Of a DNA stretch of 64,000 nt, positions 15,236 to 45,093 are shown piece by piece. Source of the stretch: an uncultured Aquimarina sp. (lineage in GTDB: Bacteria; Bacteroidota; Bacteroidia; Flavobacteriales; Flavobacteriaceae); assembly GCF_947495315.1 (NCBI RefSeq), contig NZ_CANLYD010000022.1:22390-86389 (forward strand). The letters run 5' to 3'. The position numbers and the translations under genes are program-made. Position 1 is the first letter of the stretch. Every line of letters starts with the position of its first letter. Below the pieces are notes generated by a model that did no database searches, was not told the origin of the DNA, and saw only the letters and a list, made by a program, of their open reading frames with translations.

Positions 15236-15649
15236 ATGAATAATAAATATAAGATATACAAAATCAAAGCATTTAACCTTCAGGAAATGCTTTTGGTTTT
15301 AGCAATTATAGGAATATTATTACTAATAGCATTACCAAACTTCTTACCCCTTATTGCGCAAACCAAAGCACAAGAAGCTAAAATACAATTGAAAACAATT
15401 AGTAATATGCAAACTCAGTATAGGTATCTTAATTCTAAGTATTCTTTAGACTTTAATGAAATAAATTATGAAGCTCCGAACACAGTAAAAAATGGAGGTA
15501 CTGCGAACTACAGTTATGAAATCCTCGAAGCGTCTATTTCTAATTTCAAGGCTAGAGCAACGGCTGTAGTAGATTTTGATGGTGACGGAGTATTTAATAT
15601 CTGGGAGATTGACGAAAACGGAAGCCCCAAACAAATTACTAAGGACTAA
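15236..15649 (+). CDS. Major (pseudo)pilin with class-III-type signal peptide
   Basis: Leader MNNKYKIYKIKA, then FNLQEMLLVLAIIGILLLIALP with Glu at +5. No Cys in the protein. C-terminal DFDGDGVFNIWEIDENG is a Ca-binding-like loop, as in T2SS major pseudopilins. Confidence 0.8.
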   Translation: MNNKYKIYKIKAFNLQEMLLVLAIIGILLLIALPNFLPLIAQTKAQEAKIQLKTISNMQTQYRYLNSKYSLDFNEINYEAPNTVKNGGTANYSYEILEASISNFKARATAVVDFDGDGVFNIWEIDENGSPKQITKD

Positions 15650-16131
15650 TGCTGATTCTAAAAGGACTTATAATTTTGAATTTAGGATATATTACACAAC
15701 AAGATCTCCGCAATCGAGAAGTCTACTGGTTTTTATTTCCAAGCCTCACTATTTTACTAGGATTCTTTCATTATCACAATGTACTCCCGCTTCATTTTAA
15801 AAATACTATTTTAATGAATACAGGACTAATACTTTCAATACTCTTGGTACTTTATCTATATACACTAATACGAATAAAACGTCCATTTTTTAAAGAAGTA
15901 TTCGGTATAGGAGACGCTTTGTTCTTTTTAGCCTTAGCAATCGCTTTTCCAACCATAACTTTTATTATACTGTTTGTATTTTCTCTACTGTTTTCTTTAG
16001 GGATTTGGTTAATCGCAAAAAACAACACCAAGTACAACACTATCCCATTAGCCGGATATATGTCTTTATTTTTAATACTAATTTTTATGGGTAGTTGGAT
16101 TACACATAAAATTAACCTGTATTTACTATAA
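15649..16131 (+). CDS. Minimal A24-family prepilin peptidase
   Basis: 160-aa polytopic protein with the two Asp motifs QQDLRNRE and GIGDALF. Lacks the N-terminal methyltransferase region of PilD. Start overlaps the pilin stop. Confidence 0.65.
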   Translation: MLILKGLIILNLGYITQQDLRNREVYWFLFPSLTILLGFFHYHNVLPLHFKNTILMNTGLILSILLVLYLYTLIRIKRPFFKEVFGIGDALFFLALAIAFPTITFIILFVFSLLFSLGIWLIAKNNTKYNTIPLAGYMSLFLILIFMGSWITHKINLYLL

Positions 16132-17546
16132 TGAAAACAAAATCTTTCGAAATACCGGTTCATATCAAACAGCTGATTACTCCAAATCAAGCATTTCATT
16201 ATAGAATAATTCCATTTTCTAAAGAAGATGATACGATACAATTCAAAACAGATTCAGAAAATCTAGATAATCTTCAAAAAGAGCTTTCTATAATTCTCAA
16301 TCAAGAGGTTGTACTCATACCAGAAACACAAGAAAACTTACAATCATATCTTACACTAAATTATAGAAAAACAACCGCTAGCTCTAATCAAAAACTACAT
16401 TATGAAGACAATTTTTTACAAAAATTAATTACAACTGCAAAAGATTTTGGCAGTAGTGATATTCATATGGAACCCTATGAAAAATTTTGTAGAGTACGAT
16501 TAAGACTGGATGGAAAATTGAAAGAGCAGTATACTATTAGTAATAAAGAATATCCTCAACTAGTTAACCAAATCAAGATACAATCAGGATTGGATATTTC
16601 ACAAAAAAGACTGGCTCAAGATGGGCGAATTACCTTTAAAAATGGTTCTGAAGAGTTTGATATTAGGGTATCCACAATGCCTACACTATATGGAGAAAAA
16701 ATTGTATTGCGATTATTAAGTAGAGACACACAAGACGTACAACTTAATGATCTTGGATTTACTAATAAAGAACTAGAATTATATAGAGAAGCCACCAAAA
16801 AACCACAAGGAATTATCTTAATATCGGGTCCAACTGGTTCTGGAAAAACGACAACGCTGTATGCTACTTTAAAAGAGCTTAACAAAGAAGTTTCTAATAT
16901 TTTAACTATAGAAGACCCAATTGAGTACACCTTAGAAGGTATAAATCAGGTACAACTTAGAGAAGATATAGAATTTGATTTTCCGGCGGCGCTTCGAGCT
17001 TTTTTACGTCAGGATCCAGACATAATTATGGTTGGTGAGATTAGAGACGACAAAACCGCTAGTATGGCTATTAAAGCAGCATTGACTGGTCATTTAGTCT
17101 TATCCACAATACATACCAACTCTGCTTGGGCTACTATCTCCAGGCTTATTGATATGAAAGTTCCATCTTTTTTATTAGCAAGTACACTGACAATGAGTAT
17201 TGCGCAGCGACTTGTGCGCAAGCTGTGTCTGCATTGTAAAATAGAGAAGAAATCAGAAACCAAAGATTTTCCTTTAGGATATGATATTCCTGAAGAAATA
17301 AAGACACATTATATCGCAACTGGTTGCAATCATTGTTATCAAACGGGATATTTTGGTAGAAAAGCAATATATGAACTACTACCTATTACCAAACAATTAG
17401 AGACCGCAATACGTCATAATGAGTTGCAAATTGATGACTACATTGCCACCCAAAATATTGATACGCTACAAATTAATGCAATACGCCTGGTAAGGGAAGG
17501 TGTAACTTCTGTAGAAGAAGTATATGCGTTATTGGCAAACAACTAA
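16131..17546 (+). CDS. gspE: GspE/PilB-family secretion ATPase
   Basis: Walker A GPTGSGKTTT, Walker B DPDIIMVGEIRD, His box TGHLVLSTIHTN, tetra-Cys motif CLHCK...CNHC. Confidence 0.9.
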   Translation: MKTKSFEIPVHIKQLITPNQAFHYRIIPFSKEDDTIQFKTDSENLDNLQKELSIILNQEVVLIPETQENLQSYLTLNYRKTTASSNQKLHYEDNFLQKLITTAKDFGSSDIHMEPYEKFCRVRLRLDGKLKEQYTISNKEYPQLVNQIKIQSGLDISQKRLAQDGRITFKNGSEEFDIRVSTMPTLYGEKIVLRLLSRDTQDVQLNDLGFTNKELELYREATKKPQGIILISGPTGSGKTTTLYATLKELNKEVSNILTIEDPIEYTLEGINQVQLREDIEFDFPAALRAFLRQDPDIIMVGEIRDDKTASMAIKAALTGHLVLSTIHTNSAWATISRLIDMKVPSFLLASTLTMSIAQRLVRKLCLHCKIEKKSETKDFPLGYDIPEEIKTHYIATGCNHCYQTGYFGRKAIYELLPITKQLETAIRHNELQIDDYIATQNIDTLQINAIRLVREGVTSVEEVYALLANN

Positions 17547-17550
17547 TACT

Positions 17551-43198: not shown

Positions 43199-43503
43199 AA
43201 AAAATACGAGCTGCTACATTGATCGAAACTTTAACGGCTTCGGTATTGATTATTATTGTATTTATGATCGCTAGCTTAAGTTTCAATAACATATTCAGTA
43301 ATCATATAAAAAGGGATCGTAGCGCCATTGAAAATAGAATTAAAGAATTAGAATATTTGATCATTCATCATAAAATAGATATACCGTATACGGAAGATTT
43401 TGGCTCTTGGGAAATTGAAGTTATTACTAAGAATAACAACAACATTATATTTTATCGTCAGGGTGATAATACTTTAGAAAAACAAGTAATACAACATGAC
43501 TAG
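43186..43503 (+). CDS. Minor pseudopilin
   Basis: Leader MVILKKIRA, then ATLIETLTASVLIIIVFMIA (Glu at +5). 105 aa. Confidence 0.65.
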   Translation: MVILKKIRAATLIETLTASVLIIIVFMIASLSFNNIFSNHIKRDRSAIENRIKELEYLIIHHKIDIPYTEDFGSWEIEVITKNNNNIIFYRQGDNTLEKQVIQHD

Positions 43504-43960
43504 TACTTCTCATAAAATAAAGGCCTTTACCATAACTGAAATGATGGTAGTCATTGTTATTTCTGCGGTTGTAGTCGGATTAGCCTTTACCATATTGGGG
43601 ATTGTACAAAACAATATGAGAAGTATTGAGAATAATTATGAGTATCAAGCGCAAATACAATCTCTAGAAGTTGCCTTAACCATAGATTTTAATAAATATC
43701 CAACTGCACAATGGAATCCCAGGGAAAATGAATTACTACTTTCTTCTCCTATTCAAGAAAAGGTGTATAAATTCAGTACTGATAGTATTATAAATGACCT
43801 GGATGTTTTTATAGTAAAAACAAAGCATACTACCTTTTATTTTGAAGGAGAAGAAGTAAAATCAGGAAGCGTTGATGGTATTAAGTTTACCTTTGACAAC
43901 ACTACGGATTTACATCGTATTTTTATTTACAAACACAATGATCCTACAATCCACTTCTGA
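43496..43960 (+). CDS. Minor pseudopilin
   Basis: Leader MTSTSHKIKA, then FTITEMMVVIVISAVVVGLAF (Glu at +5). 154 aa. Confidence 0.7.
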   Translation: MTSTSHKIKAFTITEMMVVIVISAVVVGLAFTILGIVQNNMRSIENNYEYQAQIQSLEVALTIDFNKYPTAQWNPRENELLLSSPIQEKVYKFSTDSIINDLDVFIVKTKHTTFYFEGEEVKSGSVDGIKFTFDNTTDLHRIFIYKHNDPTIHF

Positions 43961-43962
43961 AT

Positions 43963-45093
43963 ATGGGAATAAAAATCGAAAATACTACAAAAGCAAAACA
44001 AAAGGATAGCTCTTTTGATATTTCGGAAATCCTAACGAAGGAGATTACCTTATTCGGAAATGCCTTTAACAGCAAAAAGAAAGAACAATGGTATGCAGAA
44101 CTAAGTGTTTTATTAAAATCCGGAATCGATCTTAAGAGTGGATTAGAGTTATTGTCGGAAACTCAGAAAAAAGAAAAAGATCAGAAGTTAATGACCACCA
44201 TGCTATCTAAACTGATCGATGGTAACGCTTTTTCTGAAATACTAAAAACGAATAAAAACTTTACCGATTACGAATATTATGCAGTAAAAATTGGAGAGCA
44301 AACAGGTCAGCTAGCTCGAATCACATTAGAACTAAGTGATTTTTATAAACGAAAAAATGATCTAAAAAGAGAGATCATTTCTGCACTTACCTACCCTATC
44401 ATTGTGCTGCTAACAGCTTTGATTGTTATATTTTTTATGCTTAGATATGTAGTTCCTATGTTTGTAGATATCTTTAAGCAAAACAATGTAGAGCTTCCGG
44501 GTGTTACTAAAGCTATCATTGGTTTTTCTGAGTTTACGGGTGAAAATGGACTCCTTATTTTGGGATGCATTGCTATCGGAATAGTTTCTATTTTCCTTGT
44601 TTCAAAGAAAAAATGGTATCGAAAATTTATAGGTAATCTTCAGCTCAAAATTCCAATCCTCGGTAATTATTTCCGGAAAATATATATGGCCCAATTTACA
44701 CAAGCACTTTCACTACTAACCTATGCAAAGGTTCCCATGGTGGACAGCATTGATTTGGTCAAAAACATGATTAATTTCTACCCGTTGCAGCAAGGCTTAT
44801 ACAAAACCAATCAATCCGTCATTTCAGGAGATAAATTAAGTGCTTCATTTGCCAAAAGCCCAATTTTTGACAAAAAATTGATTGCCATGATCAGGGTCGC
44901 TGAAGAAACCAATCAAACCGAATTTATTTTTCAGAAACTCAATGAACAATACAATCAGCAGGTAAAACATCAGTCACAAGTAATTTCTAATGTATTAAAC
45001 CCCTTACTCACTATTATGGTAGGAGTTATAGTAGGTGTAATACTAATAGCAATGTATTTACCAATGTTTAGATTAAGTAGTGTGATTGGATAA
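43963..45093 (+). CDS. gspF: GspF/PilC-family inner-membrane platform protein
   Basis: 376 aa. Duplicated cytoplasmic domain (AVKIGEQTGQLARITLELSDFY and MIRVAEETNQTEFIFQKLNEQY) and three TM segments. Confidence 0.85.
   Translation: MGIKIENTTKAKQKDSSFDISEILTKEITLFGNAFNSKKKEQWYAELSVLLKSGIDLKSGLELLSETQKKEKDQKLMTTMLSKLIDGNAFSEILKTNKNFTDYEYYAVKIGEQTGQLARITLELSDFYKRKNDLKREIISALTYPIIVLLTALIVIFFMLRYVVPMFVDIFKQNNVELPGVTKAIIGFSEFTGENGLLILGCIAIGIVSIFLVSKKKWYRKFIGNLQLKIPILGNYFRKIYMAQFTQALSLLTYAKVPMVDSIDLVKNMINFYPLQQGLYKTNQSVISGDKLSASFAKSPIFDKKLIAMIRVAEETNQTEFIFQKLNEQYNQQVKHQSQVISNVLNPLLTIMVGVIVGVILIAMYLPMFRLSSVIG

Follow-up and report, generated by a model that had tools for sequence, protein, structure and literature searches.

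We have analyzed a 64,000 nt stretch of DNA from an uncultured Aquimarina species of the Flavobacteriaceae (assembly GCF_947495315.1, contig NZ_CANLYD010000022.1, positions 22,390 to 86,389), which is called the window in what follows. It contains the genes for a machine of the type IV filament superfamily. They are found in two modules, and between them lies a cassette coding for a very large protein (the giant) and an Rhs polymorphic toxin. The interpretation which we favour, with slightly more belief than doubt, is that of a single machine of a Bacteroidota type, derived from type IVa pili (T4aP), together with a conserved partner cassette, whose Rhs cargo would be exported or displayed by the machine. 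The parts of this interpretation are not equally firm. It is quite likely that machine and cassette are functionally coupled. That the Rhs complex passes through the secretin as a substrate falls a little short of an even chance. We infer the role of the fibre-like proteins and the target in competition. The cassette appears to be a conserved partner and not a foreign island, and it most likely represents exported or displayed cargo.

The left module (15236–21492) has six genes, coding for the major pilin, an A24 peptidase, a GspE/PilB ATPase, a secretin, a GspL/PilMN-like protein and a GspM/PilO-like protein; their junctions abut or overlap. The right module (39572–45093) has seven genes: two lipoproteins, a GspC/PilP-like protein, a 423 aa pilin-like protein, two small minor pilins and GspF. 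The insert of 18 kb between both modules starts with a pair of genes for tail-fibre-like proteins; those for Skp, a lipoprotein, the giant and the Rhs toxin come next, and then a presumed immunity gene.

Related cassettes are found beside this machine in many genomes, in two forms. Module A consists of Skp, a lipoprotein, the giant and Rhs. Module B consists of a 1,000–1,250 aa SpvS-like protein, followed by a DUF6443-Rhs protein. The SpvS-like protein has the N-terminal motif of the giant and C-terminal YD repeats, and lacks the barrel described below; Skp and the lipoprotein are also missing in module B.

These results come from two scans. One genome per species was scanned with the secretin as query, which gave 51 loci, 41 of them from Aquimarina. 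The others belong to seven other named genera (Gillisia twice) and to one unclassified Bacteroidetes metagenome-assembled genome (MAG). The loci were labelled by tblastn and by their open reading frames (ORFs), counts of species loci are given out of 50, and flanks have a length of 10 kb. The second scan, independent of the first, covered metagenome contigs and gave 42 loci of at least 9 kb. It was seeded with an alignment of the pilin, since the PilMN alignment was too divergent for this use. Labels such as L001 or L004 designate related loci in these scans. The cargo counts are raw counts of giant, SpvS-like or Rhs ORFs of at least 250 aa inside the 10-kb flanks.

Such ORFs are found in 30/50 species loci, among them all those outside Aquimarina (9/9). 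In the metagenomes, 31/42 loci contain giant, SpvS-like or Rhs genes, and 34/42 contain a cargo-type gene of any kind. The nearest cargo-type gene lies at most 1 kb from the boundary of the machine in 19/31 genome loci and 23/34 metagenome loci. About one tenth would be expected within this distance if positions were uniform over the 10-kb flank.

At least six arrangements of cargo and machine have been detected: the cargo follows PilO, precedes the pilin on the same strand, is divergent from the pilin, follows GspF, stands behind the ATPase of a permuted operon (L082), or lies between both halves. Among Aquimarina species, the cargo is found after PilO in the window and in L001, L003–L006, L008, L009 and L030–L034. 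It lies upstream of the pilin on the same strand in L011, L013, L018, L026, L027, L029, L042 and L047, divergent from the pilin in L036, and after GspF in L016. Outside this genus, seven loci have module B divergent from the pilin and Christiangramia has module A in this position; in L035, a short contig of Gillisia, an Rhs-like gene is found 3' of PilO and lies on the opposite strand. In eight other lineages (seven genera and the MAG) the flank of the left module which carries the cargo is conserved, while the other, downstream flank is not.

The machine is also found in bacteria of the human gut: Odoribacter, Rikenellaceae, Alistipes and Prevotellaceae. The metagenome loci include human-gut contigs (Odoribacter and relatives) and an activated-sludge contig. 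In gut Odoribacter, twelve machine genes are followed after 116 nt by a 973 aa SpvS-like/RHS-repeat protein.

Conversely, we have inspected three homologues of the giant in other genera: Sediminicola, Polaribacter and Zobellia. In Sediminicola, eight tail-fibre-like genes, Skp, the lipoprotein, the giant and Rhs are followed directly by a complete right module. In Polaribacter, a pilin homologue (54% identical) lies 4.9 kb from the giant, next to an N-masked stretch which cannot be read. We have found no description in the open-access literature of the Bacteroidota machine linked to Rhs, TcB/Tc-like or Skp cassettes. The Tc-like genes of Amoebophilus were considered as a parallel and rejected: they include TcA homology and are unrelated to a pilus machine.

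Arrangement of the two modules

In about 28 Aquimarina species the halves are fused: the left block is followed directly by the 244 aa lipoprotein and the rest of the right block. The left block is found alone in Flagellimonas, Christiangramia, Jejuia, Cellulophaga, Lutibacter, Flavobacteriales ALC-1, Winogradskyella and a Bacteroidetes MAG (eight lineages, seven of them named genera), and no GspF is present within 10 kb of these stand-alone six-gene blocks. The seven-gene right block stands alone in Aequorivita. Other gene orders are found in L030, L073 and L082; L030 is a second copy in A. hainanensis, with the order described in Cytophaga. Judging by gene order, the machine is made up of two conserved operon modules, which are either fused, apart or permuted.

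The sequence-only reading had placed the genes of both halves correctly, with their overlapping junctions, as the ORF list and profile matches agree. The right half, for which it had given the right content from 40520 to 45093, begins earlier, at 39572. The 244 aa lipoprotein, previously counted as cargo, must be the first gene of the right module because it directly follows the left block in fused loci. It opens the right half in 29/29 loci whose halves are contiguous or nearly so, and it also heads the stand-alone right module in Aequorivita, Sediminicola and Aquimarina sp. W85.

In strain W85, the distance from PilO to the right module is about 19.4 kb, and the cargo between them has the same order as in the window. 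W85 is the most basal Aquimarina lineage in a neighbour-joining tree of ATPase and secretin; other basal lineages (L030–L032) have module A after PilO. Since this basal strain has the order left module, cargo, right module, the data are most simply explained if the fused state is derived and the layout of the window is old, not a recent landing. An island which landed inside a secretion operon had been proposed for these genes. This proposal finds no support, because the junction is a natural boundary of modules which lie in separate loci in other genera. The layouts of W85 and Sediminicola speak against it too, and no integrase, transposase or tRNA has been detected in the insert or flanking it by profile and tRNA scans of the window. 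The whole window was also scanned with Rfam and for tRNA genes, without any match, and so it contains no tRNA-type integration site. The other proposal, a dedicated set of substrates, gains from a neighbourhood conserved across Bacteroidota, which is a support of genomic association.

The contents of the cassette change faster than the machine. L001 is the closest relative of the window: identity is 90–97% for pilin, ATPase, secretin and Skp, and only about 41–50% for the giant. Closer giants are found elsewhere: 95% identical in another Aquimarina and 69% in Tenacibaculum. This fits a conserved slot with exchangeable polymorphic-toxin cassettes, akin to the effector modules of type VI secretion systems (T6SS).

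All credible genes from 12972 to 45522 are on the + strand in an unbroken run, as had been claimed before; the minus strand has only short ORFs in this region, either nested in longer ORFs of the + strand or placed in spacers. The Bacteroidota -7 motif, TAnnTTTG, stands 38 nt before the pilin gene, 76 nt before the first fibre-like gene (21960) and 42 nt before the 244 aa lipoprotein gene (39572); 4/22 occurrences of this motif are intergenic. As weak evidence, at the level of a motif, such positions suggest three transcription units: left module, cassette and right module. A scan for sigma-70 promoters and terminators was discarded: it gave fewer matches than shuffled sequence, and the model is not applicable to Bacteroidota.

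In Aequorivita (L052, 14051–18752 and 1429–1701) we have observed five short fragments, 63–73% identical to the Rhs-core region of the window, each followed by small ORFs. Along with IS91 and integrase genes they surround the right module, which stands alone in this locus, and they look like an orphan toxin/immunity array.

Identity of the machine

The genes of the left module are the following:

15236–15649, + strand: major (pseudo)pilin, 137 aa; TIGR02532 prepilin domain 22.5 bits (cut-off 16.3), weak PilA, ComGC and GspG matches
15649–16131, + strand: short A24 prepilin peptidase, 160 aa, without methyltransferase domain; Pfam Peptidase_A24 E 1.6e-4, 22.5 bits, below the cut-off
16131–17546, + strand: assembly ATPase of the GspE/PilB type, with CxxC...CxxC; Pfam T2SSE E 9.4e-123, 410 bits
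17524–19785, + strand: secretin, probable start at 17551 (MKKNILL...), with a long N/Q/G/S-rich linker; Pfam Secretin E 2.3e-37, weak Secretin_N
19785–20990, + strand: 401 aa bitopic protein with GspL-like or fused PilM-PilN-like topology, assigned by position and topology
20971–21492, + strand: 173 aa bitopic GspM/PilO-like protein, final gene of the module; weak NCBIfam GspM match (E 7e-4), no Pfam match

The genes of the right module are:

39572–40306, + strand: 244 aa lipoprotein, the true first gene of the module according to gene order in relatives
40520–41455, + strand: 311 aa lipoprotein with three FN3-like repeats (Pfam fn3 E 1e-6), conserved as far as Odoribacter and sludge loci
41460–41930, + strand: 156 aa bitopic protein, GspC/PilP-like; weak NCBIfam GspC match (E 1e-3), conserved position
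41927–43198, + strand: 423 aa pilin-like protein, N-terminus KIKAQAMQFALLISVII without Glu5, beta-helix-like C-terminal part; assigned by position and N-terminal segment
43186–43960, + strand: two small minor pilins, 105 aa (RA|ATLIE), assigned by N-terminal segment and position, and 154 aa (KA|FTITE), with a prepilin domain above the cut-off
43963–45093, + strand: inner-membrane platform protein GspF/PilC, last gene of the module; Pfam T2SSF E 6.5e-42, two repeats

The machine has the parts which define the type IV filament superfamily: ATPase, platform protein, pilins, A24 peptidase and secretin. The prepilin domain is above the cut-off in two pilins, the major one and the 154 aa minor pilin (TIGR02532 19.9 bits versus 16.3). 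The 105 aa minor pilin has only a weak ComGD match and the 423 aa protein only a weak bactofilin-type match, so that their pilin-like label comes from N-terminal segments and position alone. The 423 aa protein is conserved phylum-wide. It is a candidate tip subunit, as a large minor pilin of the GspK/PilX type.

The leader of the major pilin ends in ...KIKA|FNLQE, with Ala at -1 and Glu at +5. In an alignment of 11 orthologues from 9 lineages, either Ala or Ser occupies position -1, and Gly does not occur there. As the sequence-only reading had pointed out, the pilin lacks Cys and contains a DFDGDG sequence; this lies near the C-terminus and is invariant in the alignment. Identity of the pilin across lineages is 55–81%, versus 22–47% for PilMN. 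In the A24 peptidase, both catalytic aspartates, D19 and that of G86-x-G88-D89 (GxGD), are invariant in 12 orthologues, Odoribacter included.

The 401 aa protein has a cytoplasmic domain, one transmembrane segment and a periplasmic domain. It has no sequence match in Pfam, NCBIfam or PDB. Its place downstream of the secretin is kept in 50/50 genome loci, and the family has 1,794 clusters at 50% identity, all of about 400 aa; the Odoribacter orthologue has a weak PilN match. The 173 aa protein keeps its position in all loci examined. Profile-based PDB sequence searches with the PilMN-like protein and the 423 aa pilin gave nothing useful.

All NCBIfam scores are below the equivalog cut-offs of the canonical type II secretion system (T2SS): GspE 464 versus 630 bits, GspD 142 versus 351, GspF 223 versus 424 and GspG 32 versus 89. 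The same is true for T4aP: PilB 474 versus 676, PilQ 150 versus 284 and PilC 192 versus 700. The ATPase thus scores nearly the same as PilB and as GspE, and only 45 bits as TadA. The platform protein reaches 231 bits with HofC, also under its cut-off. A second ATPase of the T2SSE family (PilT/PilU), which a T4aP would have, is absent from the 64-kb window and from the 10 kb flanks of 92 related loci, in agreement with the earlier claim. In addition, the parts similar to PilM and PilN seem to be fused in the 401 aa protein.

There are several similarities with the canonical T2SS (Gsp/Pul/Eps): a single assembly ATPase with no retraction ATPase nearby, a major pilin without Cys and with a DxDxDG-type motif, a fused GspL-like protein, bitopic GspM-like and GspC-like proteins, a large minor pilin without Glu5 like GspK, and candidate substrates which depend on Sec. 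The counterparts of T2SS proteins L, M, C and K (the 401, 173, 156 and 423 aa proteins, in this order) are topological only, with weak GspM and GspC matches. The differences are also clear: the window has three minor pilins instead of four, Ala/Ser instead of Gly at the cleavage site, a 160 aa peptidase without the methyltransferase domain and two extra lipoproteins, and published trees place the system with T4aP. A T2SS-like machine rather than a motility pilus had been proposed. The lack of a nearby PilT, the pilin features, the fused GspL-like protein and the GspK-like protein without Glu5 are consistent with this, but do not prove it.

The closest system is the so-called T2SS of Bacteroidetes, which has been described in Cytophaga hutchinsonii (CHU_3191-3201) and listed for F. 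johnsoniae, F. psychrophilum, Pedobacter and Odoribacter (Wang et al. 2017, PMC5553014). According to Denise et al. (2019, PMC6668835) it always clusters with T4aP; they suggested that it might have arisen from type IVa pili as a separate, novel system for secretion. Mutants of the Cytophaga machine lost adhesion, and their cellulose use and outer-membrane profile were affected while the soluble secretome was unchanged; the literature covered names no direct substrates of this system. We equate the machine of the window with this system, having matched it to CHU_319x by the published description. Both belong to the same phylum and share the components D, E, F and G and a short A24 peptidase; in both, the PilMNO-like proteins are divergent, and so are the minor pilins, which are few. 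The Cytophaga order (minor pilins-F-G-O-E-D-MNO) is that of A. hainanensis L030. Odoribacter members are retrieved with the pilin of the window at about 50% identity and are linked by pilin and ATPase. On the other hand, the modules of the window are permuted, left before right, with cargo between them.

A response-regulator-type protein of about 225 aa (Pfam Response_reg, 31.7 bits) is found directly 5' of the pilin in several loci outside Aquimarina, namely L041, L043, L049, L050, L064, L067, L097 and L098; in L040 and L063, a receiver-domain protein of this size is found 3' of PilO instead. It is a candidate regulator of the machine. The window has no such gene.

Two other observations concern the ends of the machine. 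Upstream of it, the region 12972–14980 codes for a 218 aa protein of unknown function, DUF3822 and an RsmD-type methyltransferase, which are of a housekeeping type. The window shares them only with L004–L006; in other Aquimarina species a different flank precedes the machine. Downstream, 45328–45522 codes for a bacteriocin-like 64 aa peptide with a double-glycine leader (..KEINGG|NIGG..) and four Cys, followed by a hairpin with a 17-bp stem (45570–45607). A 92% identical copy of this peptide is found in L004 and L005, where it lies upstream of the pilin and not after GspF.

The cassette and its proteins

The cassette and the spacer which follows it contain these features:

21960–24476, + strand: two tail-fibre-like paralogues, 427 and 405 aa, the first cassette genes, with Sec signal peptides and a common C-terminal domain
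24644–25177, + strand: Skp/OmpH-type periplasmic chaperone (Pfam OmpH 94.6 bits)
25326–25679, + strand: 23S-rRNA-IVP gene, inside the cassette, between Skp and the 201 aa lipoprotein
25800–26405, + strand: 201 aa lipoprotein, lipobox LLLSSC, obligate partner of Skp and giant, between which it lies in every module A
26605–32313, + strand: giant protein, ORF of 1,902 aa, 1,858 aa from the probable start at 26737; Sec signal MPKGRTPVRHRAIAMFFVLTFLNTLIPYNQLWA
32261–36733, + strand: Rhs polymorphic toxin (Rhs1490), probable start at 32336; Sec signal MTKFNIYISCFFLVLVSFIGTAQ; NCBIfam Rhs_assc_core E 8.6e-15, residues 1202–1276
36739–37152, + strand: DUF6896 protein, presumed immunity protein (Pfam DUF6896 82.5 bits), 6 nt after the toxin gene
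37153–39571, no strand: mostly non-coding spacer of 2.4 kb, with internal duplicates (repeats D9–D12), a heptamer array and a doubtful 152 aa ORF (37622–38080)

In the giant, a Sec signal and a conserved motif at the N-terminus are followed by a porin-like beta-barrel (residues 165–372 approximately), a beta-rich middle part and an Rhs/YD shell (about 1240–1780). The protein has no sequence match in Pfam, NCBIfam or PDB. The family is widespread in Flavobacteriaceae, where every member is annotated as hypothetical, and a genome may contain several paralogues. AlphaFold2 models were obtained from alignments of 36 and 32 homologues and compared with known structures by Foldseek. The model of residues 45–1150 (mean pLDDT 70) has 14–16 long antiparallel strands in the barrel region. 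Its top matches are without exception barrels of the outer membrane, namely KdgM, PcoB, OmpG, NanC and autotransporter translocators; TcB is not among its matches. The model of the C-terminal 800 aa (residues 1100–1902, mean pLDDT 80) has TcdB2-TccC3 as its best match (4o9x, E 4.9e-11), then YenB (probability 1.00), Rhs effectors of T6SS and teneurins, with TM-scores of just 0.2–0.28. According to these models, the giant is a TcB-like Rhs half-shell protein which also carries a porin-like barrel.

The giant had been called SpvB-like. For the N-terminal domain this label finds no support: Pfam SpvB is undetected in the giant and in SpvS-like proteins even at E ≤ 1, and TcdB_toxin_midN and FG-GAP are likewise undetected in the giant. 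The N-terminus presumably resembles SpvB/TcB at the level of a motif, which the Pfam search does not recognize. What stands is the C-terminal part, which models as a TcB/Rhs shell.

The Rhs toxin consists of a variable N-terminal domain, a YD shell, an Rhs core ending in ...RIDPDGG and a variable C-terminal domain, and it matches DUF6443 weakly. It matches Pfam RHS_repeat and the NCBIfam YD repeats, and its PDB sequence matches are to the SGS1 Rhs region. The C-terminal domain (about 210 aa) has a DGHHR motif (ParB/Srx-like) and weak ParB-like matches, so that it is possibly a ParB-like nuclease. The position after the toxin gene, occupied in the window by the DUF6896 protein, is taken by Imm44 in Zobellia and by small ORFs in other loci; immunity to the Rhs toxin is the presumed role of the DUF6896 protein. 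A YD shell, an Rhs core, a DPxG end, a variable C-terminus and a downstream candidate immunity gene are the features of an Rhs/YD polymorphic toxin, from which we infer toxin activity of the C-terminal domain.

A giant or SpvS-like gene is always followed immediately by an Rhs gene on the same strand, and in all pairs YD repeats are found at the ends of both proteins which meet (32313/32336 in the window). This suggests a split cocoon like that of TcB-TcC. Similarities with the BC part of Tc toxins (TcdB2-TccC3, YenB-YenC) include two genes in the order B then C, the modelled C-terminal shell of the giant, and the Rhs core with DPxG and a variable toxin. Unlike these toxins, the window has no TcA-like injector gene, both proteins have Sec signals, the giant has an outer-membrane-type barrel, and the immunity gene after the toxin suggests that its targets are bacteria rather than insects.

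The giant, the Rhs protein and the fibre-like proteins all have Sec signal peptides. No C-terminal sorting domain of the type IX secretion system (T9SS; TIGR04183, TIGR04131) was found in any of them with NCBIfam or Pfam. The 405 aa fibre-like protein matches Pfam Phage_T4_gp36 (27.4 bits, cut-off 26), and both paralogues are 46% identical. From two to eight tail-fibre-like genes precede Skp-giant or SpvS-Rhs modules in many loci.

In module A, Skp is always directly upstream of the lipoprotein and the giant: this is the case in Aquimarina, Christiangramia, Sediminicola, Zobellia, Polaribacter and metagenomes. Judging by this order, the Skp/OmpH chaperone is dedicated to the cassette. The 201 aa lipoprotein has no family match in Pfam or NCBIfam. 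Directly upstream of the Skp gene (24479–24640) there are three tandem copies of a 54 nt unit, whose 23 nt core is found at no other site in the window (0 expected by chance); it may be a regulatory array. The 23S-rRNA-IVP gene is only present in the window, L004 and L005, and absent in L001, L006 and L008, a distribution which marks it as a probable later insertion.

Another type of repeat is found around the IVP and lipoprotein genes and at both ends of the cargo: arrays of 7 nt units (GAAGTCA/GAAGACG) and their complements, which form long imperfect inverted repeats, for example 62 nt with 76% complementarity. They are located at 25179–25327, 25723–25798, 26399–26589, 21526–21607 and 39240–39417. 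The IVP gene seems to sit inside a pre-existing hairpin, because L006 has heptamer arrays without the IVP gene.

The spacer contains a duplicate of about 235 nt (37356–37589 and 38329–38546) and three 47 nt copies. Pieces of 50–110 nt recur 3' of Rhs or immunity genes in seven other Aquimarina loci. The final 160 nt or so correspond to the conserved upstream region of the right module: 39405–39562 matches the sequence upstream of the 244 aa lipoprotein gene in L002. Spacer repeats may serve as sites of recombination when cassettes are exchanged, or may be the remains of orphan modules which have decayed. GC content is 0.37–0.39 in the Rhs region versus 0.30–0.34 in the machine, and no other Rhs or giant copies are present in the remaining 31 kb of the window.

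Possible roles of the machine and its cargo

A specific form of the favoured interpretation may be put forward tentatively, and with more doubt than confidence: a dedicated exporter of Sec-dependent TcBC-like Rhs cocoons, independent of TcA, whose tip (the 423 aa protein and both minor pilins) would carry or eject the toxin through the secretin. In the mechanism which we propose for the favoured interpretation itself, the giant, the Rhs toxin and the fibre-like proteins would cross the inner membrane via Sec. Skp would keep this cargo in the periplasm. A short pilus, driven by the ATPase, would then push or carry the Rhs complex through the secretin to the surface or the medium. Finally, the encapsulated C-terminal toxin, possibly a ParB-like nuclease, would hit competing bacteria, while the DUF6896 protein would protect the producer.

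Several facts weigh against a machine which exports or displays this cargo. Linkage is not obligatory: in about 17 Aquimarina species the halves are fused and the 10-kb flanks contain no cargo, in A. pacifica the giant is on a different contig from the machine, and the Zobellia giant has no machine gene within 10 kb. The sequence-only reading had named two signs against linkage, adjacent halves free of cargo and no co-occurrence with Rhs or SpvB-like genes: the first does occur, yet co-occurrence with Rhs and giant genes is strongly positive. The counts behind this are raw, with no background Rhs density taken into account, and related species share ancestry, so that the loci are not independent. 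The tie between machine and cassette is one of genomic association, not of experiment or expression. The three blocks each have their own promoter-type motif, so that co-transcription is not implied. For the barrel, Foldseek gives weak matches, with E of about 4e-3 and a probability of up to 0.99. The porin-like barrel of the giant, together with Skp, suggests that the giant could reach the outer membrane through the beta-barrel assembly machinery (BAM) without any secretin. Moreover, a closed cocoon of the Tc BC type is about as wide as the lumen of a T2SS secretin, or wider.

In the main alternative, which we consider unlikely, the machine works together with the cassette but does not export it. 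It would be a surface pilus for contact between cells, and the giant would insert itself by its barrel via Skp/BAM, like an inverse autotransporter, and display a TcB/TcC-like cocoon. The similarity of the predicted 14–16-strand barrel to porins and autotransporter translocator domains agrees with this, as does the dedicated Skp and lipoprotein pair which always precedes the giant. The pilin is very highly conserved in comparison with PilMN, and the C. hutchinsonii mutants changed in adhesion and outer-membrane profile, not in soluble secretome. Nevertheless, module B, which lacks the barrel insert, Skp and the lipoprotein, is linked to the machine just as tightly. The Rhs protein only has a Sec signal, with no evident route across the outer membrane, and none of the 92 loci has a retraction ATPase nearby.

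Mobile and abundant Rhs cassettes might also gather near the machine by recombination, with no functional tie, as hitch-hikers or in a hot-spot; the window would then show no more than a cassette which had landed between two operons. This explanation is improbable because of the range of taxa and arrangements: adjacency is seen in marine Flavobacteriaceae and as far away as gut Odoribacter and activated sludge, it takes at least six forms, and the distance is mostly 1 kb or less. Such hitch-hiking would account for the many species with fused halves and no cargo, for the swapped cassette content (giant about 41–50% identical between window and L001, with pilin, ATPase and secretin at 90–95%), for the 69% identical giant of Tenacibaculum, and for the difference in GC content. 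Insertion sequence (IS) or integrase genes are found near cargo in Aequorivita, W85 and Polaribacter, and orphan Rhs-core fragments surround the right module of Aequorivita. However, it leaves unexplained why only the flank on the cargo side is conserved in eight other lineages, and the insert of the window has no integrase, transposase or tRNA in it or beside it, nor further Rhs or giant copies in the other 31 kb.

Very improbable, finally, is a machine whose primary job is DNA uptake, or display of adhesins or enzymes for polymer use as in Cytophaga, with Rhs merely co-regulated or tolerated: the best Pfam match of the pilin is ComP_DUS and there are ComG-type pilin and ATPase matches (all of them weak), the Cytophaga phenotype concerns cellulose use and adhesion, and several genera have a response-regulator gene 5' of the pilin, but the loci viewed show no linkage of the machine to ComEA, ComEC, DprA or polysaccharide-utilisation genes, and the Rhs linkage throughout the phylum would be left unexplained. 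DNA uptake in particular has been set aside because the competence genes found by a transposon screen in Riemerella, according to the literature, include no pilus genes.

An exporter of Rhs cargo, which we still favour, may be compared with two other systems. T6SS clusters also have Rhs toxin-immunity cassettes in or beside the machine cluster, with extra copies elsewhere, and exchange them faster than the machine; the machine of the window, on the other hand, lacks Hcp, VgrG, PAAR and TssBC, and its toxins have Sec signals. In the Kil system of Myxococcus (Tad-like, contact-dependent killing), a machine of the type IV filament family is tied to the killing of bacteria. The sequence-only reading had drawn this parallel, which is no more than an analogy: the ATPase and platform protein of the window are of the GspE/PilB and GspF types, not TadA/TadBC.

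In summary, the so-called T2SS of Bacteroidota is an orphan machine, and its linkage to Rhs cassettes provides concrete candidate substrates and a candidate role in antagonism between bacteria. As far as we have been able to determine, the coupling of this known orphan machine to a known class of toxins is new. If it is true, it would explain how Sec-dependent Rhs toxins without a T9SS signal leave Bacteroidota cells, and would show how a Tc-like BC cocoon is used without a TcA injector. The machine and its cassette would then be a distinct weapon between bacteria, found from marine Flavobacteriaceae to human-gut Odoribacter, Alistipes and Rikenellaceae. Its presence in gut taxa means that it may matter for competition in the gut community.

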